Assembly (NCBI GenBank): GCA_029288775.1
Contig: JARIGQ010000001.1
Location: 29,044-93,043 of the forward strand
Direction: 5' to 3'
DNA length: 64,000 bases
Origin: Candidatus Nomurabacteria bacterium
GTDB lineage: Bacteria > Patescibacteriota > Minisyncoccia > Phycocordibacterales > UBA5272
The notes beneath the pieces were generated by a model. It was given only the letters and a program-made list of their open reading frames with translations, did no database searches and had not been told where the DNA came from. A program made the translations under genes and the position numbers. Shown piece after piece: positions 7,401 through 62,252 of the stretch. Positions within the stretch are counted from its first letter, which is position 1. Each line of letters starts with the position of its first letter.

Positions 7401-8489
7401 TTATTCCGGTTGTTCGTTTTCTTCAGGATCTACCGAACCTGAATAGGAGAGACCGCCTTCATCCAAATGTTTTCTAATTTGCTTTGCAAGAGCATCTCCA
7501 ACTTTTTTATTTTCACGCAAATAGGTACGTGCCGCGTCATAGCCGCGACCAAGTTTTTCATCGCCATATACGTACACCGAGCCTGAGGATTTGCCGACAA
7601 GCTTGAATTTTTCACCCAAAGCAAGAAGCTCTCCTTCGCGCGAAATACCTTCGTTATAGATGATGTCGAATTCGGTTGTTTTAAACGGAGCGGCAACTTT
7701 GTTCTTCACCACTTTTACTTTTGTGCGAGCGCCGACAACTTCTTCACCCTTTTTAATCTGGGCAATCTTACGAATATCGATACGAACAGAGGAGTAGAAC
7801 TTGAGCGCTTTTCCTCCTGGAGTTGTCTCCGGATTGCCAAACATCACTCCGATTTGCATGCGGATTTGATTGATGAAAATAATAACCGTTTTAGATTTCG
7901 CGGCAATTGCGGTTAACTTGCGAAGGGCTTGGGACATGAGGCGCGCTTGCTTGCCGACATGCTGCGCACCCATATCACCTTCGATTTCATCTTTTGGAGT
8001 AAGCGCCGCGACAGAGTCGATGACAAGGACGTCTACTTTACCACTTCGCACAATTGATTCGGCAATTTCTAGTGCCTGCTCGCCATTATCAGGTTGAGAA
8101 ATGAGAAGTTCATTGATGTTAACACCAAGCTTCTTTGCATATTCAGGGTCCATGGCATGTTCTGCATCAATGAAGGCACATAATCCGCCCATTTTCTGAG
8201 CTTCTGCTACCACATGTAAGGTAAGCGTTGTCTTACCAGAAGATTCAGGGCCATAGATTTCGATAATACGTCCGCGCGGAAGTCCGCCGACACCGAGTGC
8301 CGCATCCAAACCAAGTGAGCCTGTAGGAACAACACCAACATCAACTTTAGGTGCAGAGCCGAGTTTCATCATGGCTCCTTCACCGAATTTATTTTGTATT
8401 TCTCGGAGGAGGGCATCGGAGGAAACTTTTTCGTTTACCTCCTTGCTCCCAACCGTTTTTGCTTGTTTTGCAACTTTCTTTTTTATCAT
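7401..8489 (-). CDS. recA: Recombinase RecA
   Basis: GPESSGKTT Walker A and high overall RecA similarity. Confidence 0.95.
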
Positions 8490-19989: not shown

Positions 19990-20630
19990 TATGAGCACTG
20001 TTAATGATGAAGAACACGAAAATTACTAGCTAAAAACCGCAGGCAAGTGACGTTTCGTTACGCGCCCGCCGGTAAGGCGGATTTTCTTTTCTAAAAATTG
20101 TTACAGGGGAGGTTCGTTGACAATAGAATCCCGTGCACAACACGCGCAACAATACTGTTATCCAGTAGTAGTAATATTCACTGGGGTCTAGCGGAGTTTG
20201 TAGTACGGGGAACATGAAAGATAATCAATGCACAAGTAGCTTGTAAACCTGCTTGTGCAGCACGCACATAACAATGGAGCGGTCCGGAGTTATGTGGTAG
20301 TTATGTTTCCTAATAGGAACATAAGAGCATACGGTGGATGCCTAGGCTCTAACAAGCGATGAAAGACGTGATCAGGCGGCGATACGCTTCGGGGAGGTGC
20401 CTAATAACCTTCGATCCGGAGATTTCTGAATGGGGAAACCTCATACGAGTAATGTTGTATGGTCTTAGAGAGCATTCTCAAGACGCGCACCCAGGGAAGT
20501 GAAACATCTCAGTACCTGGAGGAAAAGAAAACAAAAGTTATTCTGCAAGTAGCGGCGAGCGAAAACAGAGAAGCCCAAACCAGCACACCACTTTGCTTTC
20601 AATTGATATCGTTCATGTATGTTTATAAGG

Positions 20631-20987
20631 GGAAAAAAGTTCTTTGCCCGCCTACCAAGGCGTGCACATATCCGATTCATCGGATATGGCGGGTCTCAAT
20701 TAGGGAAGCAGCCATGAGGTGAGCCTCTGTGAGACCGAATGAGATACCAGAGGTTGACGTACGCTTGTTGGTGACGTTGACCGGAGCGCCCGAAAGCGCA
20801 AGCTAACGGGAACAACGCACACGAAATCTCTCGTGTGCGTTGACAATGCCGTAAGGCTTCAAGGTGCTGACAAAAATGCCTTACGGAAGCTGGCCAGGCT
20901 GTGAACGATCGCATCGGCTTGGTTGGAAGGTGAGAGGCCGCAGGAACCCCCGCTCTTTAAAGTTTTGCCGATTATAAATCGGCTCTC
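20631..20987 (+). other. Structured insertion of about 357 nt in 23S domain I, closed by a roughly 50-bp imperfect inverted repeat (20581-20630 with 20988-21048); IVS-like
   Basis: Flanks CAGCACACCACTTTGC...ATGTATGTTTATAAGG and CCTTATAAACATACAT...GCAAAGTGGTGTGCTGG are reverse complements. No counterpart in E. coli 23S helices 9-10. Confidence 0.6.
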
Positions 20988-21251
20988 CTTATAAACATAC
21001 ATGAACGAATACGATATCAATTGAATTGAAGGCAAAGTGGTGTGCTGGGGTAGTAAGACAGAAACGTAGATTTCTAGAAGAGTTACAAAAGGTAAATATA
21101 GACTAAGTTGTTGGAAAGCAACGCCACAGAAAGTGATAGCCTTGTAGTCGAAATATTTATCTCTCTTTTGTTTCTGATCTTGAGTAGTTCGAGACACGAA
21201 TAGCTCGGATGAATCAGCCGGAACTAACCGGTAAGGCTAAATATTGTTAGA

Positions 21252-21297
<46 letters not shown>

Positions 21298-22772
21298 GGA
21301 AGGGGAGTGAAATAGAACTGAAACCGTATGTTTACAAAGAGTAGAAGAGGTATTTATACCTCGACTGCGTGCCTATTGAAGAATGAGCCAACGAGTTGTA
21401 GGTTACTGCAGGCTAAGTGGTATAAAGTCACGGAGCCATAGCGAAAGCAAGTGTTAATAGCGCGAACCAATTGTAGTAGCTTACAGACCCGAAGCCGGAT
21501 GAGCTTACCATGAGCAGGGTGAAGCAGTGCGAAAGCACTGTGGAGGCCCGAACCAGTAGGTTGTACGACTCCTTTGGATGACTTGTGGTAAGGAGTGAAA
21601 AGCTAATCGAATTCGGTAATAGCTGGTTCTCTCCGAAATAGTTTTTGGACTAGCGTCATGTGTTCCCTTTGGGGGTAGAGCACTGGAAGGTTTTGACTAG
21701 TAGAAATACGGCAACACCTATCAAACTCCGAATACCAAAGGTTAAAAACATGGCAGTAAGACCACGGGGGCGAAGCTCCGTCGGTCAAAAGGGAAACAGC
21801 CCAGATCTCAAGTTAAGGTCCCTAAGTATAGATTAAGTGTATAGCGAGGAGGTGGAGTTTCATTGACAATGAGGATGTTGGCTTAGAAGCAGCCATCATT
21901 GAAAGAAAGCGTAACAGCTCACCCATCGAGAGACTCTGCGCCGTAAATGATCGGGACTAAAATCTATCACCGAAACTGAGGGCTTCCTATTTATAGGGAG
22001 CGGTAGGAGAGTGTTCCACTCTGCGCTGAAGCGGAAGGGGTAACCCACCGTGGAGCGTGTGGAAGTACGAATGTTGGCACAAGTAACCGCAAGGAAGGTG
22101 AGATCCCTTCCCGCCGAAAGAATAAGGTTTCCTTTGCAATGATTGTCAGCGAAGGGTTAGTCGGGCCTAAGGAGATGGCAAACGCCGGATCCGATGGACA
22201 TAAGGTTAATATTCCTTAACTTGGTAGTAATGTGATGGGATGACGGGGTGTAGTATGTAAAGCGTCTTATTGGATTGACGTTTATTGTGTAAGTGGCTTG
22301 TGTAGGGAAATCCGCACGAGTATACCGCAAGCACCGTATGAAGGTGAGGGGCAACCCGAGCCAATTTTACAAAGCACGCCTCCGAGAAAAGTCTCTACAT
22401 TCTGTGAATACAGAACGTCTTCTTGTGCCTTTTACTAGGTACGAGCTTGCTTGTATCTAGATCATCTAGGTACAAGAAGATGCTTAAGTTACTATTAATC
22501 CGTACCGCAAACCGACACAGGTATTCGAGTCGAGTAGACTAAGGCGAACGAGTGATATCTCCCTAAGGAACTAGGCAAAAAAGCGATCGTAAGTTAGCGA
22601 TAAGATCTGCCCATAGCAATATGGGCCGCAGCGAAAGTTTCCCTAGCGACTGTTTACCAAAAACACAGCTTCCTGCGAACACGTAAGTGGATGTATAGGA
22701 GGTGACGCCTGACCAATGCGGGAAGGTCAAATATCGGCGGTGCTTCGGTGCTGGATGATATAAGCCCCCGTC

Positions 22773-22804
<32 letters not shown>

Positions 22805-23018
22805 TCTGATCATATCTATGATGTGGTCAGAACGGACTAGGACGGTTATAGGGAATTTGGTTTAAATAAAGTAAAAACAGTCTAATTGTGTACGCTTCAT
22901 AAAGCTACCTGTTGCATCGAAATATGCATTCAGTCCAATGTGATTAACGAGAGACCAACGTCACACATCTGACCATTAGGTTGAAGATGAAGATAGAGTC
23001 CAACTTGAGGAATAGTTG
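22805..23018 (+). other. Group-I-type intron in 23S at the E. coli U1917 site (214 nt)
   Basis: Interrupts the universal GGUCCUAAGGU|AGCGAAAUUCC. 5' exon ends in U and the insert ends in G. P7-like R/S elements GGACUAG and AAGAUAGAGUCC. P9 hairpin CAACU-tgaggaau-AGUUG before the terminal G. P1/IGS pairing was not found. Confidence 0.55.
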
Positions 23019-23588
23019 AGCGAAATTCCTTGTCTGGTAAGTTCAGACGTGCACGAATGGCGTAACGACTGGGGAACTGTCTCAGGGAGTAGCTCGGTGA
23101 AAATACAGTGGGGGTGAAGATGCCCCCTAGCTGCAGATAGACGAAAAGACCCCGTGAGCTTTACTCTAGCTTGGTATTGCAAGTGTTCAATTACTGCGTA
23201 GTGTAGTGGTGAGAGGTTGAAGGTATGATTTCGGTTGTACTGGACTCGTCGATGAAACAGCCATCTGTAATTGGGCACTTGCTAACGTGAACGGAAAAAA
23301 CGTTCGCAGACAGTATCTGGTGGGGAGTTTAACTGGGGCGGTTTCCTCCCAAAAGGTAACGGAGGAGTATATTAAGGTCATCTAGGCGCGAATGGAAACC
23401 GTGCCGATAGCGCAAGGGCATAAGATGGCTTGACTGTGAGACGGGCATGTCGAGCAGACGCGAAAGCGGGTCCTAGTGAACCTACTCTTGGCTTTAGACG
23501 CCGGAGCAGATTAACGGATAGAAGCTACCACGGGGATAACAGGCTAGTTGTGCCTAAGAGTTCATATCGACGGCACAGTTCGGCACCT

Positions 23589-23942
23589 TAACTTTAATCG
23601 GGGTGCGTCAGGAGCAATCCTGTAGCAACACATGTACAATCGTCAAATAAATAATATGTACACAAGAAATCTTGGCTTATAACGGTGAAACCCTTATGCA
23701 TGAACACCATAAGGGCAATACCGTGGGAAGTTTATATGTAAGAAAGCGATCACTCCAATTGTATTGGAGAGCTGCACACCTCAAAATGTGATTACATGTA
23801 TAACCTCGTAGAGACTTGTCACGCATGTGACGGAGTTGTGGTTCAAAGAAGATAAACCATAGCTAATACGCCAACGCCGCCTTTGATCGGGCGGATGAAG
23901 ATATAGTCCGATCCTTCCAGTAATGGAAGACAAATACGACAG
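23589..23942 (+). other. Group I intron in the 23S peptidyl-transferase region near E. coli 2500 (354 nt)
   Basis: Interrupts GGCACCU|CGAUGUCGG. IGS GGGUGC (23601-23606) pairs with exon GCACCU, with U.G at the splice site. S element AAGAUAUAGUCC is an exact consensus match. R-like AGAGACUUG. P9 hairpin CUUCCA-guaa-UGGAAG. Terminal G. Confidence 0.7.
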
Positions 23943-24088
23943 CGATGTCGGCTCATCTTATCCTGGTGGTGGAGAAGCTACCAAGGGTTTGGCTGTTCGC
24001 CAATTAAAAAGATACGTGAGCTGGGTTCAAACCGTCGTGAGACAGGTTGGTTTCCTATCTTCTGCAGCCGTTCGAATATTGAGAAGAT

Positions 24089-24119
<31 letters not shown>

Positions 24120-24474
24120 TGACCTCTGGTGTGTGGGCTCTAGCGCCAGCTGGACCGCCCAGTAGCTATGTCGGGAATGGATAACCTCTGAAAGCATCTA
24201 AGAGGGAAGCCAACTTCAAGATAAGTATTCGTTGAGGGTCGTAAGAGATGATTACGTTGATAGGATCTAAGTGTACGCACAGTAATGTGTTTAGCTGAGG
24301 ATTACTAATTACCCGAATCCTATTAGGAAACATGATTATCACAAATAATCATCGTGCATCTTTCATGTGGTGAGAGGAGGTTGAAGAGTCTGATACCAGC
24401 AATGGTCGCTTACAATTTGGCTTCCTCTCACCACGTGAAGATTTGGTTCTTTCATGTTGTGAACGATATATGAT

Positions 24475-24650
24475 GGGGATGTAGCTCAGTTGGTAGAGCG
24501 TTTCCCTGGGGGTTGGGTGTCAACGCCCGACTTGTCTCCCAGCTAGTTGCCGAGTACAAAAGGCTTAGGCAAAAGGACTGCCGCCGACGAGGTGGAGGAA
24601 GGGGGAGAGCAGGGGGAAGGTCGCAGGTTCAAATCCTGCCATCTCCACCA
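24475..24650 (+). tRNA. tRNA-like gene (probable tRNA-Pro, anticodon GGG) interrupted by a roughly 100-nt insert in the anticodon loop; CCA encoded
   Basis: Acceptor GGGGATG pairs with CATCTCC. Canonical D-arm GCTC-AGTTGGTA-GAGC. T-arm GCAGG-TTCAAAT-CCTGC. Anticodon stem TTTCC pairs with GGGAA only across about 101 nt (about 24512-24612). Confidence 0.45.
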
Positions 24651-44840: not shown

Positions 44841-44904
44841 CATAGCAAAAATGGACAAGAAAAAAAGCAGCGCTTGCGCGCTGCCCAAAGCACCTTTCCC
44901 GCCC

Positions 44905-45774
44905 TTAATCGTTTACGACTACCGCCACGAGATTTCTCCGCTGTACTTCTCCGGCAACCAGTTGCCGCTTATTGGAGTACCAGACAGGTTCACCGTCCTT
45001 CATCTCGCTGTAGGTGCACATCGAGTCAAGGATAATGTTTTGTTCGGGTACACCGAAGCTTGTGAATTGTCGCCGGATGAGCTCTTTAGTGTCGAGCCAC
45101 CCAAGTGTGCGACCGTGACCGTCATCCTTGAAGCATTCCCGTCCCCAGGTTTCGGAGACATAGGTGACGAGACGGGAGTTATGAGGGTTCTCTTTGTCGA
45201 ACATCGAATGCTGGAAGTGCGGTCCAGGTGAGATGGAAAACCCAACCCACACACGCACATCTTTGAGATTCTGACCTTCGAATGCACACCGGCAGATGCT
45301 GTCGACGACGCTTTGGTAGCGTCGAGGAGCTTTTCCCCGTACCCGAGCCATGTCGATGATGCTGTTGCGTCCAGCGTGGGCAGCGACGATGATGTCTCCG
45401 CACTTGGCCACGACGAGTGCGCAGTCTGCTGCCGACATGGCATAGCCGCACGAAGCATCGAGATTAGTCACGCCGTCTGCGTCTGTACCGCGGTAGATGC
45501 GGAATTCTGCGCCCGGGCTGAAACTCATACACGGGATTTCTCCCGGCCATACAATCTCGGCATTCATCTTCGATGGGGATGGTGCAGCGAAAGCTTCCAA
45601 CTCTTCGCTAGCAATGGAAGCCAAAGCTTCGAAGATCGGAGTATGCGTTTTGTGTTGCTCCTTGCTTTCGTCGAAGCCACGAAAGGAGAAATCGCAACCA
45701 TGCTCACGCCCAAAAGCATGCACCGTGATTTCGCCTCCTAAAATCGGGAGCGAAAGTGTAGGTTCGATGGACAT
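44905..45774 (-). CDS. PgeF/YfiH (DUF152, laccase-domain) peptidoglycan-editing-factor-like protein
   Basis: ADCALVVAKCGDIIVAAHAGRNS matches the HAGWRG region. The start was set at MSIEPTL, which has an AGGAAG Shine-Dalgarno. Confidence 0.65.
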   Translation of the reverse strand: MSIEPTLSLPILGGEITVHAFGREHGCDFSFRGFDESKEQHKTHTPIFEALASIASEELEAFAAPSPSKMNAEIVWPGEIPCMSFSPGAEFRIYRGTDADGVTNLDASCGYAMSAADCALVVAKCGDIIVAAHAGRNSIIDMARVRGKAPRRYQSVVDSICRCAFEGQNLKDVRVWVGFSISPGPHFQHSMFDKENPHNSRLVTYVSETWGRECFKDDGHGRTLGWLDTKELIRRQFTSFGVPEQNIILDSMCTYSEMKDGEPVWYSNKRQLVAGEVQRRNLVAVVVND

Positions 45775-45920
45775 TACTGTCTTCCTAAAAGTTGAGTGTA
45801 CCTCTTTCGGATTGAAAGGGCTTCTACTACCAACACTACAATAGTAAAATAAGCTTGTCAATTAAGGCTTTTTGGAGCGCTTTTGCACTGGTATTTAGGG
45901 GGTAAAAATGGTATAATTAA

Positions 45921-48020
<2,100 letters not shown>

Positions 48021-48085
48021 GCAGTTGACGAAAACACTATTTAATAGTAAAATAAAATAGGTAAGTTCAACCAGGAGCAGGCGTA

Positions 48086-48325
48086 ATGTTTGAAATTCTC
48101 TCAGATGGGGAGAACGGAGAAATCATTCTCTTCAACGGGAAAATGTGTCCTCCCCAACCTCCTTGTTCAACCTCGGAGACCGTTGCCGCGGCGACTCACG
48201 ATGCGCGGCGTCCTTTCACGAGCCCGCCGCCGGATTTCCGGACGGTGCGTCGGCCTGTGGTTCCCGTTCTCGTGGAACCAGGGAACATCATTCCGGCATC
48301 CAAGGACCCGAAGCACAACGAGTGA
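48086..48325 (+). CDS. Hypothetical small protein (79 aa) entering the GC-rich island
   Basis: AGGAG Shine-Dalgarno 8 nt upstream. The region is GC-rich and has long ORFs in several frames, so the frame is uncertain. Confidence 0.25.
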   Translation: MFEILSDGENGEIILFNGKMCPPQPPCSTSETVAAATHDARRPFTSPPPDFRTVRRPVVPVLVEPGNIIPASKDPKHNE

Positions 48326-48342
48326 TCGTTCGTGCCCCGGTC

Positions 48343-48372
48343 AAGTCCCGCCATGCGGGACTTTTCTTTTTA
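48343..48372 (+). terminator. Intrinsic terminator inside the GC-rich island
   Basis: AAGTCCCG-ccatg-CGGGACTT hairpin followed by TTCTTTTT. Confidence 0.55.
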
Positions 48373-48420
48373 TTAAATCCTGATAGGATAAAAAGCTGTA
48401 ATAGTTTTTTGGAGAACAAA

Positions 48421-48558
48421 GTGAATCAAGAAACGAAAGAACGGCAGCCGTACCCAGGTGACTGGGCTTTTCCCAAGAGGTACCCGCCCCAACAGCAGGC
48501 CCCTCGGCAAGACGAAAGAAAAGAGGAGCAGCAGCAAGAGCAGCAGGTGCAATTGTGA
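48421..48558 (+). CDS. Hypothetical 45-aa Gln/Pro-rich peptide (GTG start)
   Basis: GGAGA Shine-Dalgarno 5 nt upstream. Its TGA overlaps the GTG of the next ORF (GTGA). Confidence 0.2.
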   Translation: MNQETKERQPYPGDWAFPKRYPPQQQAPRQDERKEEQQQEQQVQL

Positions 48559-48836
48559 GCGCAGAGGTTATTCCGGTTCGCCCGGAAACCCGCGCCATGT
48601 TGCATCTATGCAACGAGATCAGCCAGGGCCGGGTGGGGTGGTTCAATCCCCACGTGCTTACACTTGCGCTTATCCGTGCTTTTCCTTATCTCCACCGGAA
48701 AGAGGATGAGCTCTTCGTGATCGAATTAGCTTGTGGTGTTGCTACATGGAAGATTGTACGTGCACCGCTTGAGTCTGATCCGTCGCATTACTACGTCAGG
48801 TGGCTTACGCGATATTTTCGCAAACGCTTCACCTGA
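48555..48836 (+). CDS. Hypothetical 93-aa protein (GTG start), coupled to the preceding peptide
   Basis: Ends at a strong bidirectional terminator. Arg/Tyr-rich C-terminus. GC-rich. Confidence 0.3.
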   Translation: MSAEVIPVRPETRAMLHLCNEISQGRVGWFNPHVLTLALIRAFPYLHRKEDELFVIELACGVATWKIVRAPLESDPSHYYVRWLTRYFRKRFT

Positions 48837-48880
48837 AAACCGCCCCGGAAGGGGCGGTTGTTTTTTATTTCTTTTCTTTG
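48836..48880. terminator. Bidirectional intrinsic terminator (GC island / thrS)
   Basis: AAAACCGCCCC-ggaa-GGGGCGGTT hairpin followed by TTTTTTATTTCTTTTC. Overlaps the thrS stop. Confidence 0.8.
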
Positions 48881-50628
48881 ATTTCGTTTGTAAGACGAGT
48901 AATGAGATCATCCACTTTCATTTCTCCAATTTTTCCTTCGGTGCGATGCTCCAGGGTCACTGTGCCATTTGCAACTTCTGCATCACCAATAACTGCCCAG
49001 TAGGGTGTTTTCATTTCACGTGCATTTCGTATCTTTTTTCCGAGGCCTTCCTTAGCATCATCAAGTTCTACACGAATGTCTTTTTCTGAAAGTGTGTTTT
49101 TGATGGAAACTGCATATGCTTTATGTGCGTCAGCAATCGGCAAGATAGAAATCTGAGTAGGAGAGAGCCAGAGCGGGAAGTTACCACCCGTATGCTCAAT
49201 GAAGGTAGACATGAAGCGTTCGATAGATCCCATCACCGCGCAGTGAATCATCACAGGACGCTCTCGTTTACCTTCTTCACTTACGTATTCAAGTTCGAGA
49301 TTTGTCGGTTGAACGAAATCGACTTGGATGGTTGCTACCTGCCAGGTTCGACCAATTGAATCCTTGGCCATGAAGTCAATTTTTGGTCCATAGAACGCCG
49401 CTTCACCTTCCCCGTCTATCCAATTGTCAGCGCTTTTTGCATGAATAAGATTTTTAATTGCCGTTTCTGCTTTGGTCCAACCTTCATCTCCACCCATGTA
49501 CTTTTCTGGTGCGTTCGGGTCCCGTCGTGAAAAACGCGGTGTGAGAGAAAAGCCGAATGTCCCATAAAAGGTTTCGATGATTTGCCACACACGCCCCATC
49601 TCTTCTTCAAGTTGGGATTCGCGACAGAATACATGCGCATCATCTTGGGTAATGGATAGTACACGTGCCAGACCAGAGAGTTCGCCGGATTGTTCATCGC
49701 GATAGACCATTGTAGTTTCGGAGAAGCGAAGCGGAAGTTCTTTATATGAGCGCAGTTCGCTTGCATAAATTTGTGCATGATGTGGGCAGTTCATCGGCTT
49801 CATGGCAAAGAGATGCTTGTCACGTGTTTCAATCTTGAAAAGATCTTCGGCGTATTTTGCCCAGTGCCCGCTTTTTATATAGAGATCGCTTTTTGTGATA
49901 TGTGGAATGGTAACGCGCTGATAGCCTTGTTGTTTGCGGAGTGACCATACATAATCATTGAGAGCTTCACGAATGAGTGTTCCACGTGGAGTCCAAAGCG
50001 GAAGGCCTGGGCCTACGAGCTCGCTAAATGTAAAAAGCTTGAGCTGCTTGCCTAAAATGCGATGATCTCGCTTCTTTGCCTCTTCCTGCTGTGTGATATA
50101 TGCATCTAGTTCTTCCTTTGTATCGAAGGCAAGTCCATAGATGCGAGTGAGCATGGCATTTTTTTCATCTCCACGCCAGTACGCGCCGGCGATCTTATCG
50201 AGCTTAAAACTTCCGGGAGCAATGTCTCCTGTGGTGTCAGTATGTCCACCTCCGCACAGATCAAAGAAGGTGTCTCCGGTGTAATAGATGGTGATGGTCT
50301 TACCTTCCTTTTCTAGATTATCTATAAGTTCGCGCTTATAAGGATTCATTTCAAAAAGTGCTCGTGCTTGATCAGCAGTTACTTCTTCGTGATGAAAAGG
50401 AAGTGCTTGGCTTATGATTTCATGCATGGTCGCTTCAAGTTTTGGAAAGTCTTCTGCGCTTGGCTTGCCGGCATTTCCGAAATCAATATCATAGTAGAAG
50501 CCATGCTCAATAGCCGGACCAAGCGTCGGAACAGCATGTGGATAATGGTGCTTTACCGCCATCAGTAGTACATGAGCCAGTGAGTGGCGTTTTTTAGCAA
50601 GTAATGGAAGGGAATCGCTGTGTGACAT
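48865..50628 (-). CDS. thrS: Threonine--tRNA ligase (no N-terminal TGS extension)
   Basis: Class II catalytic core and anticodon-binding domain. The -10 element abuts the ATG (leaderless). Confidence 0.9.
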   Translation of the reverse strand: MSHSDSLPLLAKKRHSLAHVLLMAVKHHYPHAVPTLGPAIEHGFYYDIDFGNAGKPSAEDFPKLEATMHEIISQALPFHHEEVTADQARALFEMNPYKRELIDNLEKEGKTITIYYTGDTFFDLCGGGHTDTTGDIAPGSFKLDKIAGAYWRGDEKNAMLTRIYGLAFDTKEELDAYITQQEEAKKRDHRILGKQLKLFTFSELVGPGLPLWTPRGTLIREALNDYVWSLRKQQGYQRVTIPHITKSDLYIKSGHWAKYAEDLFKIETRDKHLFAMKPMNCPHHAQIYASELRSYKELPLRFSETTMVYRDEQSGELSGLARVLSITQDDAHVFCRESQLEEEMGRVWQIIETFYGTFGFSLTPRFSRRDPNAPEKYMGGDEGWTKAETAIKNLIHAKSADNWIDGEGEAAFYGPKIDFMAKDSIGRTWQVATIQVDFVQPTNLELEYVSEEGKRERPVMIHCAVMGSIERFMSTFIEHTGGNFPLWLSPTQISILPIADAHKAYAVSIKNTLSEKDIRVELDDAKEGLGKKIRNAREMKTPYWAVIGDAEVANGTVTLEHRTEGKIGEMKVDDLITRLTNEIKEKK

Positions 50629-61954: not shown

Positions 61955-62252
61955 TATATGTCTTTGTCTGTAAGCCGAATTCTGTTTTTGTGTAGACATG
62001 TATCTTGTCCCGCCATTGCTGTCGAGATCTAGCGACACTCCTTAGTATTGCTAATAAGGCACGGTCTTGCACACGCGTATGTATTTAGCCGTTTCAGCCG
62101 GACTGAACCGGATCGTTTCTGTTCGCAACACGGTGGTCACCCACGACGGGCGTTACCCGCTACGTTTCCACAGTGAAGTGGTGTGTGTTCGGACTTTCCT
62201 CACCGTTTCCGGCGCGTCTACCCAACAAAGAACTTTTTTAGTATACCATATA

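Follow-up and report, generated by a model that had tools for sequence, protein, structure and literature searches.

A GC-rich gyrB-thrS junction in a Candidatus Nomurabacteria genome as a candidate native locus of rapidly evolving small proteins

Considered here is the gap between gyrB and thrS within 64,000 nucleotides (nt) of Candidatus Nomurabacteria DNA (GenBank assembly GCA_029288775.1, contig JARIGQ010000001.1, positions 29,044 to 93,043 of the forward strand), with that whole stretch described as the window. Its source is a member of the Parcubacteria/Paceibacteria group, within the candidate phyla radiation. The gap consists of positions 48021-48864, i.e., 844 bp which separate the stop of gyrB (48020) from that of thrS (48865), and it is read here, with somewhat more belief than doubt, as a native, rapidly evolving small-protein locus made up of two transcription units with lineage-restricted products. 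That is, it probably is neither a horizontally acquired toxin-antitoxin cassette nor a known RNA gene. The locus is of an ordinary kind, i.e., lineage-restricted small genes in a variable junction. What is mildly new is an unannotated, positionally conserved family of glutamine-rich (Gln-rich) mini-proteins, to which the product of one of the gap's open reading frames (ORFs), orf45, is accepted as belonging. The features upon which this reading draws are the following.

45942-48020, plus strand: gyrB, an ORF of 692 amino acids, the left flank
48025-48053, plus strand: promoter-like site P1, TTGACG-17-TAAAAT, from a consensus scan (10/12 matches)
48073-48077, plus strand: Shine-Dalgarno (SD)-like AGGAG, 8 nt before the orf79 ATG
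48086-48325, plus strand: orf79, from the ORF list, 79 amino acids, 16.5% Pro, isoelectric point (pI) 5.6, an orphan
48343-48372, plus strand: intrinsic terminator T1, 9-bp stem UUUUCUUUUUAUU, hairpin 48343-48363 and then a U run, -14.7 kcal/mol, z = -5.7
48381-48389, plus strand: extended -10-like box TGATAGGAT, putative promoter P2, from sequence inspection
48411-48414, plus strand: SD-like GGAG, 6 nt before the orf45 GTG
48421-48558, plus strand: orf45, GTG start, 45 amino acids, 26.7% Gln, pI 5.2, the Gln-rich mini-protein
48555-48836, plus strand: orf93, 93 amino acids, basic (pI 9.4), predicted to be helical, an orphan, its start overlapping the orf45 stop (GTGA)
48838-48869, both strands: bidirectional terminator T2, hairpin 48838-48859, -19.4 kcal/mol with GUUUUUUAUUU (plus) and -18.0 kcal/mol with UUUUC (minus)
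48865-50628, minus strand: thrS, an ORF of 587 amino acids, the right flank, convergent with gyrB

An earlier, preliminary description of this DNA had proposed the same layout, of an SD-led 79-amino-acid ORF, a terminator, and then a GTG-started 45-amino-acid ORF overlapping by GTGA with a 93-amino-acid ORF, and its coordinates are confirmed. So too are its two intrinsic terminators, the second of them bidirectional, by folding energies along with U runs. T1 starts 18 nt after the orf79 stop and, as there is no U run on the minus strand, is a plus-strand terminator only, whereas T2 is common to the orf45-orf93 unit and thrS. P1 is the sole such site in 47800-49100 and is compatible in position with a transcript start near 48060; shuffled sequences also yield about one such site, which makes P1 weak evidence when taken alone. 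Boxes of the P2 type precede many host genes as well, e.g., ATGTGATAGGAT before 57322.

The conserved element of the locus is orf45, with protein sequence MNQETKERQPYPGDWAFPKRYPPQQQAPRQDERKEEQQQEQQVQL, which is a low-complexity Gln/Glu/Pro peptide without a domain match. A scan for Gln-rich tails found an ORF of 33 to 58 amino acids, on the gyrB strand and between gyrB and thrS, in 10 relatives (these being, in the labels used here for related loci, L003, L006, L007, L009, L014, L017, L021, L081, L087 and L100, with L089 the same contig as L021). Roughly half of the close clade retains the mini-ORF at this location. A common plan is seen in the family's alignment, designated A2, of a Pro-rich N-terminus, QQQQxR, a charged linker, and then (R/K)xQQ(Q/E)xQQxQ(M/L)-stop. 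orf45 fits this plan of two Gln blocks (PPQQQAPR-QDERKEE-QQQEQQVQL-stop, as aligned in A2), and it resembles the 10 relatives also in lying on the gyrB strand in a gap with convergent thrS, in its length of 45 codons, and in its GGAG, as an SD-like motif is found 6-11 nt before the Gln-rich ORF in 10/10 relatives. With the 55-amino-acid ORF of the L009 gap it has in common PYPxDWxFP as well as the Gln-rich tail.

The A2 profile separates its members, at E <= 3e-5, from everything else, at E >= 4.9, across 44,130 six-frame peptides, and in leave-one-out runs the omitted member always is the top non-training match. As orf45 is 1 of 11 candidate peptides on the plus strand of the gap, the probability of its chance placement is approximately 2.5e-4. 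At the DNA level its 3' end is 70.7% identical to the Gln-rich ORF of L007 over 58 nt (blastn E = 0.001, in a small database), and with L009 tblastn gives E = 0.03-0.05. Similarity statistics alone are weak here, and orf45 is accepted as a family member, as judged from sequence, upon rank, position, shared motif and the short DNA alignment together. CAA and CAG swap at aligned Gln positions across the family, which suggests that it is the protein, and not RNA pairing, that is constrained. Searched against 5.8 billion proteins the A2 family profile finds one match, a 50-amino-acid 'hypothetical protein', and against Protein Data Bank (PDB) sequences it finds none. Such ORFs are passed over by gene callers.

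What adjoins the Gln-rich ORF differs from relative to relative. In L006 and L081 a gene of a family designated A1 follows within 0-8 nt, and in the window it is orf93 that follows, overlapping orf45. In L003, L009, L017 and L021 a terminator lies between the Gln-rich ORF and the next gene, and in L007, L014 and L100 no further gene separates the Gln-rich ORF from the terminator that is shared with thrS. On the upstream side, overlap of a preceding small ORF with the Gln-rich ORF is seen in L100 (GTGA), L009 (ATGA), L006, L007 and L017. As a separate observation, L082 has a Gln-rich frame (7654-7785) inside of, and out of frame with, a 100-amino-acid ORF (7524-7826) of the PKTxWV family described below, which may reflect a frameshift or a fusion, or else faulty assembly of the L082 contig.

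The junction as a whole is similarly variable. The window's GyrB is 64-90% identical to those of 161 related contigs, the labelled ones of which are Parcubacteria, Paceibacterota, Nomurabacteria and similar. Convergent gyrB and thrS are found in 92 of these 161 loci, with gaps of 5-5571 bp (median 896). Among the 22 relatives with GyrB identity of at least 79% the gap always is filled, at 455-3547 bp and with differing small ORFs, and near-empty junctions (5-75 bp) are seen only at GyrB identities of 72% or less. The cargo varies as well, i.e., a SLOG-like 170-amino-acid protein, the A1 family, another family designated A4, Nudix plus methyltransferase genes, and small Cys-containing ORFs. The window's 844 bp align with none of the 161 related loci by blastn, tblastn or tblastx. 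The gap sequence thus is unique, even though gaps that are filled, and variably so, are usual in the clade. The collections scanned contained no genome with an average nucleotide identity (ANI) above 95%.

Three protein families of these gaps may be described in their own right. A1 is an uncharacterised family of 160-200 amino acids which adjoins thrS in L002, L003, L006, L009, L013, L016, L019, L021 and L081. It has invariant G, H and D residues and the motif HSWL...IIDVLPxG, lacks Pfam and PADLOC matches, and has only four database relatives; its AlphaFold 2 (AF2) model has a predicted local distance difference test (pLDDT) score of 40, too poor for a fold search. A4 consists of 58-126-amino-acid proteins encoded directly upstream of the Gln-rich ORF, often overlapping it, which carry a PKTxWV-like motif and a tail that is acidic and rich in Pro (L100:1810-2103, L081:7197-7577, L003:8734-9039, and members in L006, L007, L009, L017 and L082). 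In L100, L081 and L087 the sequence of this family is rich in GC. A protein of 168-172 amino acids, 'MKWxxFTGTWxLT...TGGAxGVDxFxMDE', is encoded in the same gap of L003, L014, L016, L017, L021, L022, L034 and L081 (e.g., L081:6620-7132). It has no Pfam match at E <= 0.01, and its Gly-rich motif is one which we take to recall SLOG/DprA-like nucleotide-binding domains.

Composition is what first sets the gap apart within the window. The GC-rich island that had been described between gyrB and thrS is borne out by GC content in sliding 200-bp windows, as its peak, 0.645 at 48161, is the top such window of the entire 64 kb (mean 0.442, standard deviation 0.042). GC is 0.52 over the gap as a whole and 0.55-0.60 in 200-bp windows across 48100-48700, with one GC-rich run, CCGCCGCCGG, at 48224-48233. 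The island is not the only GC-rich stretch of the window, however, there being a second at 44851-45770. That long ORFs are open in several frames likewise was correctly seen, with 6 ORFs of at least 79 amino acids inside the gap versus a mean of 1.5 in dinucleotide shuffles (P = 0.001). The longest of the gap's ORFs, at 137 amino acids, is within chance by those same shuffles (P = 0.12), so ORF length alone says little.

Relatives display this same rise in GC at this same place. Just upstream of the Gln-rich ORF it reaches 0.66 in L100 (gyrB 0.42), 0.72 in L081 (0.55) and 0.60 in L087 (0.43), with a milder rise, to 0.56-0.58, at that position in L003, L006, L014 and L021. High GC in several relatives goes with small Pro/Gln/Ala/Arg-rich ORFs at this position and so is no mark of foreign origin. 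That is, composition is not diagnostic of a foreign island at this locus, and the recurrence of the rise at relatives' junctions indeed argues against recent foreign origin.

From the layout, its signals, the synteny and the family membership of orf45 the following picture may be drawn, one which is to be read as a proposal. The junction of convergent gyrB and thrS is kept in the Parcubacteria/Paceibacteria lineage, with content differing genome to genome. Unit 1 (about 48060-48372) would run from P1 through the SD-led orf79, encoding a Pro-rich and probably disordered protein, to T1. Unit 2 (about 48395-48869) would begin at the extended -10 promoter and supply SD-led translation of orf45, the Gln-rich mini-protein, followed by termination-reinitiation at the GTGA overlap, giving orf93, a basic, helical protein of 93 amino acids, with the unit closing at T2. 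The Gln-rich mini-protein would represent the conserved core of the locus, and its neighbours, orf79 and orf93 here and other families in relatives, would be replaced rapidly. The Gln-rich peptide probably acts with the small protein encoded next door, presumably in physical partnership, and at a guess as a small disordered adaptor.

The two neighbours in the window are indeed without kin. orf79 is annotated as a gene in an NCBI record, which also contains GyrB, finds only itself among 1.84 billion representative proteins, and has no significant match in the viral collection. By exact sequence neither orf79 nor orf93 nor gyrB is listed as a gene in the contig index. It is weakly similar to a 126-amino-acid ORF found at the same place in L081 (a 15-residue BLASTP match, E = 0.002 for one comparison). 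Membership of orf79 in the 'PKTxWV' small-ORF family, A4, or in the L081/L082 family was considered and rejected, as a profile built without the window misses it at E <= 50, and jackhmmer started from L081/L082 does not recruit it either; an hhalign comparison of orf79 with A4 was circular, that alignment containing orf79, and was disregarded. For orf93 a search of 5.8 billion proteins gave no homologue, and nothing significant was found for it in viral and metagenome collections or, by tblastn, in plasmid and phage collections. Neither orf79 nor orf93 matches PDB sequences. The AF2 model of orf93 consists of four helices at pLDDT 51, which is too poor for a fold search. Its product had been described as Arg/Tyr-rich, of which the Arg part stands (10.8%), but Tyr is at 4.3% and it is instead Leu that equals Arg (also 10.8%). 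Whether orf93 might be a shortened A1 ('HSWL..IIDVLP', 160-200 amino acids) protein was an idea prompted by a resemblance of 'LIRAFPYL' to 'LVRAFExMF'; hmmsearch gave no match at E <= 10 and hhalign a probability of 0.3%, and this candidate too was rejected, as unproven. With orf93 not detectably in A1, and orf79 not recovered from A4 or the L081/L082 family, the two are therefore orphans in slots which, in relatives, are filled by other small genes.

The preliminary description had seen in the island a horizontally acquired toxin-antitoxin-like or peptide cassette, and of these only 'peptide cassette' remains a fair description. As a rival reading, with orf45 the antitoxin and orf93 the toxin, a horizontally acquired toxin-antitoxin-like cassette is considered to be very improbable. 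Its appeal is in the adjacent, co-oriented small genes which overlap by GTGA and have a single terminator after orf93, the upstream product acidic (pI 5.2) and the downstream one basic (pI 9.4), as well as in the deviating composition (a GC peak of 0.645 versus 0.442, and third-codon-position GC, or GC3, of 0.57-0.62 versus 0.40) and the absence of this sequence from all 161 related loci. The likeness to type II toxin-antitoxin modules, i.e., two small genes that overlap by 4 nt, have a promoter-like box and a terminator to themselves, and encode an acidic and then a basic product, does not extend to the proteins, however. In the searches given next orf93 has no match to any recognised toxin superfamily (RelE/ParE, MazF, PIN/VapC, HicA, Doc, GNAT and others), and no antitoxin DNA-binding domain of the RHH, HTH, AbrB or Phd/YefM type plus toxin-binding tail is detectable in orf45. 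More broadly, six candidate ORFs from both strands have no match (E <= 1) in Pfam, NCBIfam or PHROGs, and five of the six have none (E <= 0.1) in PADLOC. That neither product of the pair could be matched to a known family is thereby upheld, for Pfam, NCBIfam, PHROGs, PADLOC and PDB (for orf45 in PDB, via the A2 profile), and the toxin-antitoxin-like identity is not, there being no toxin, antitoxin or defence family match for the island's ORFs. The putative antitoxin furthermore is inherited within the clade, with different partners or, in L007, L014 and L100, with none, and it is not spread among taxa in a mobile or patchy manner.

Horizontal acquisition fares similarly. By blastn the island's DNA has no significant match in plasmid and phage collections, nor is there a viral match. 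Meaningful flanking repeats are absent, as is any other copy within the window, no integrase, transposase or tRNA target was found, and 844 bp leaves no room for a mobility gene. No homologue is seen in any other lineage that might serve as donor, and close relatives never have an empty site. Relatives' junctions hold instead analogous, locally GC-rich small-ORF clusters. Comparison of this junction among relatives, as the preliminary description had proposed, thus speaks largely against its own suggestion in that a filled, GC-rich gap recurs, while the sequences themselves do not align.

Several observations nonetheless weigh against the native small-protein reading, and these are shared in part with the rival in which orf45 alone is a genuine gene, orf79 and orf93 are open by chance in DNA that is rich in GC and poor in stops, and the region is a decaying remnant of earlier cargo or simply 5'/3' untranslated sequence flanking the mini-gene. 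That rival is judged to be unlikely, while being the least unlikely of those considered. orf79 and orf93 lack detectable homologues in the protein sets, the 161 related loci, and the viral, metagenome, plasmid and phage collections. Their coding scores (orf79 -0.022 and orf93 -0.014 bits/nt, with orf45 at -0.049) are below those of every host gene (0.090 +/- 0.027) and close to the 95th percentile of non-coding shadow ORFs (-0.013), i.e., at the level of the best of these. The GC3 values given above depart from those of host genes as well, which foreign DNA would also show. In the codon-position GC test orf45 is clearly periodic (p = 0.0004), orf93 is of marginal significance (p = 0.044), and orf79 shows no significant periodicity (p = 0.18). 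The confidence of the AF2 model is low for orf93, and in L007, L014 and L100, where the Gln-rich ORF is last before the terminator, a downstream partner is not required. Even orf45, in leave-one-out analysis, has E = 1.5 (10.3 bits), though it is the top non-training peptide among 44,130. Set against chance ORFs, however, the proposed frames have the best coding scores locally, rival frames being at -0.06 to -0.21, with GC lower at second codon positions than at first and third. The gap has more long ORFs than do its shuffles (6 vs 1.5, as noted). orf79 possesses a promoter-like site, a well-spaced AGGAG in a genome in which SD motifs are rare (3/42 long ORFs, against a background rate of 15%), and its own terminator close to its stop. 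orf93 starts exactly at the GTGA (48555-48558) with AGGTG 5 nt upstream, linkage to a partner being likewise tight in L006, L081 and L100, and the equivalent slots in relatives hold conserved small protein genes (the A4 family and the L081/L082 pair).

A further point against the native small-protein reading is that 48555-48835 folds better than do shuffled sequences, with z = -2.6 on the plus strand and -4.3 on the minus strand, which a coding role does not explain. This leads to the remaining rival, of one or more undescribed structured non-coding RNA genes, in unit A (48060-48372) and/or on the minus strand over 48555-48835, which is thought to be quite improbable, less likely than orf45 being the sole gene but not so improbable as a toxin-antitoxin cassette. 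The minus strand of 48555-48835 folds at -102.1 kcal/mol, and a structured RNA there is possible; no promoter or terminator is seen for it. In favour of such genes are a GC-rich island in an AT-rich genome, a promoter-like site and terminator which bracket about 310 nt, and a GC peak seen again at the corresponding position of relatives, although the sequences there cannot be aligned. That is, as with GC-rich non-coding RNA islands (RNase P RNA, transfer-messenger RNA or tmRNA, 6S, and signal recognition particle RNA), a GC peak, a promoter-like site and an intrinsic terminator are found together. Unlike these, there is no covariance-model match, as Rfam 15 on 48021-48864 returns nothing at gathering score, and in E-value mode only E >= 1, far below family cut-offs, with nothing at a family-relevant level up to E <= 10. 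Unit A, once its terminator is removed, folds no better than shuffles (z = -0.7), and the high overall fold z of unit B is partly due to its terminator. In relatives, moreover, the GC-rich stretch is conserved as protein (L081 and L082 are 48% identical in amino acids, with E = 1e-12, and L082 is a match of the A4 profile). The structured-RNA alternative which the preliminary description had offered thereby loses ground, and its observation that RNase P RNA and tmRNA are absent from the island agrees with Rfam and with ARAGORN, the latter finding no tmRNA there. Among 11 related loci Rfam finds only tRNAs.

A bolder variant of the native small-protein reading, one which is regarded as doubtful, about as improbable as an RNA gene, is that the Gln-rich mini-ORF and its variable neighbours (orf79/orf93, and the 'PKTxWV', 'HSWL..IIDVLP' and SLOG-like proteins) make up an undescribed, clade-specific Paceibacteria module, in either of two versions. 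In one, translation through 11-12 Gln codons may gate, via coupling, the expression of a fast-evolving effector, and were this so then the locus would either sense the supply of Gln-tRNA or be a pair of the toxin-antitoxin-like kind. In the other, the GC-rich, disordered small ORFs at the junction may mark ongoing de novo gene birth. Leader-peptide transcription attenuators exist as the trpL/hisL/pheL type, and orf45 recalls these in being a short ORF in which codons for a single amino acid form a run shortly before the stop, with a terminator within about 20-40 nt in L003, L007, L009, L014, L017 and L021. It differs from them in that the window's terminator is 280 nt past the orf45 stop, with orf93 overlapping orf45, so that a terminator/antiterminator directly after a leader ORF, along with a regulated same-strand gene, is not what is found. 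L007, L014 and L100, too, lack a downstream gene to regulate, having only the convergent 3' end of thrS, and the Gln-rich peptides keep non-Gln motifs, with N-termini variable.

The closer likeness is to orphan small-gene islets between core genes, with which the junction shares conserved convergent flanks, gap content that varies from 5 bp to 5.6 kb, and short, fast-evolving products without families. It differs from these in that a Gln-rich mini-ORF is kept in place, the GC shift is seen in several genomes, and there are neither mobility genes nor repeats. For this lineage, then, a GC-rich and ORF-dense patch would signify native, variable content rather than a foreign toxin-antitoxin island or an RNA gene. 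The Gln-rich mini-proteins are an unannotated family, constant in genomic location, from candidate-phyla-radiation bacteria in which small proteins are virtually unexplored, and the gyrB-thrS junction could serve as a marker locus for small-gene turnover in these reduced genomes.

As a side observation on translation signals, most host genes are without an SD, and the SD-led ORFs of the island stand out against these. What precedes the ATG of these host genes is an extended -10-like box (TGTGATAGnAT or TGnTATACT), with 5-10 nt between the end of the box and the ATG, examples being the starts at 45942, 50628 (minus strand), 29301, 38236 and 57322. Such closeness of box to ATG suggests leaderless or near-leaderless mRNAs. 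A look at the literature on Gln-rich small proteins, and on SD or leaderless use in these bacteria, found nothing relevant.

Elsewhere in the window, RNA genes have features of their own. No 16S gene was detected in it. The 23S rRNA gene (20311-24327, plus strand) is 4017 nt long versus a 2925-nt model, with a 453-nt insertion near model position 283 and others besides. Between it and the 5S rRNA gene lies a tRNA (24475-24647, plus strand) which the Rfam tRNA model matches at full length with 52 bits; spanning 173 nt, it has an implied anticodon-loop insertion of approximately 104 nt, intron-like, and is not called by ARAGORN. RNase P RNA (class A) is encoded at 61955-62233 on the minus strand, 279 nt and 103.4 bits versus a gathering score of 100, in a reduced form with several helices shortened.

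The second GC-rich stretch of the window, 44851-45770 (up to 0.62), lies inside a Cu-oxidase_4/PgeF-like gene (ORF 44905-45861, minus strand, GC3 0.57), which adjoins Mur-ligase and FemAB-like genes, also on the minus strand. Instead of this arrangement, the closest relatives have before gyrB a plus-strand Mur ligase along with an ORF of 100-104 amino acids.

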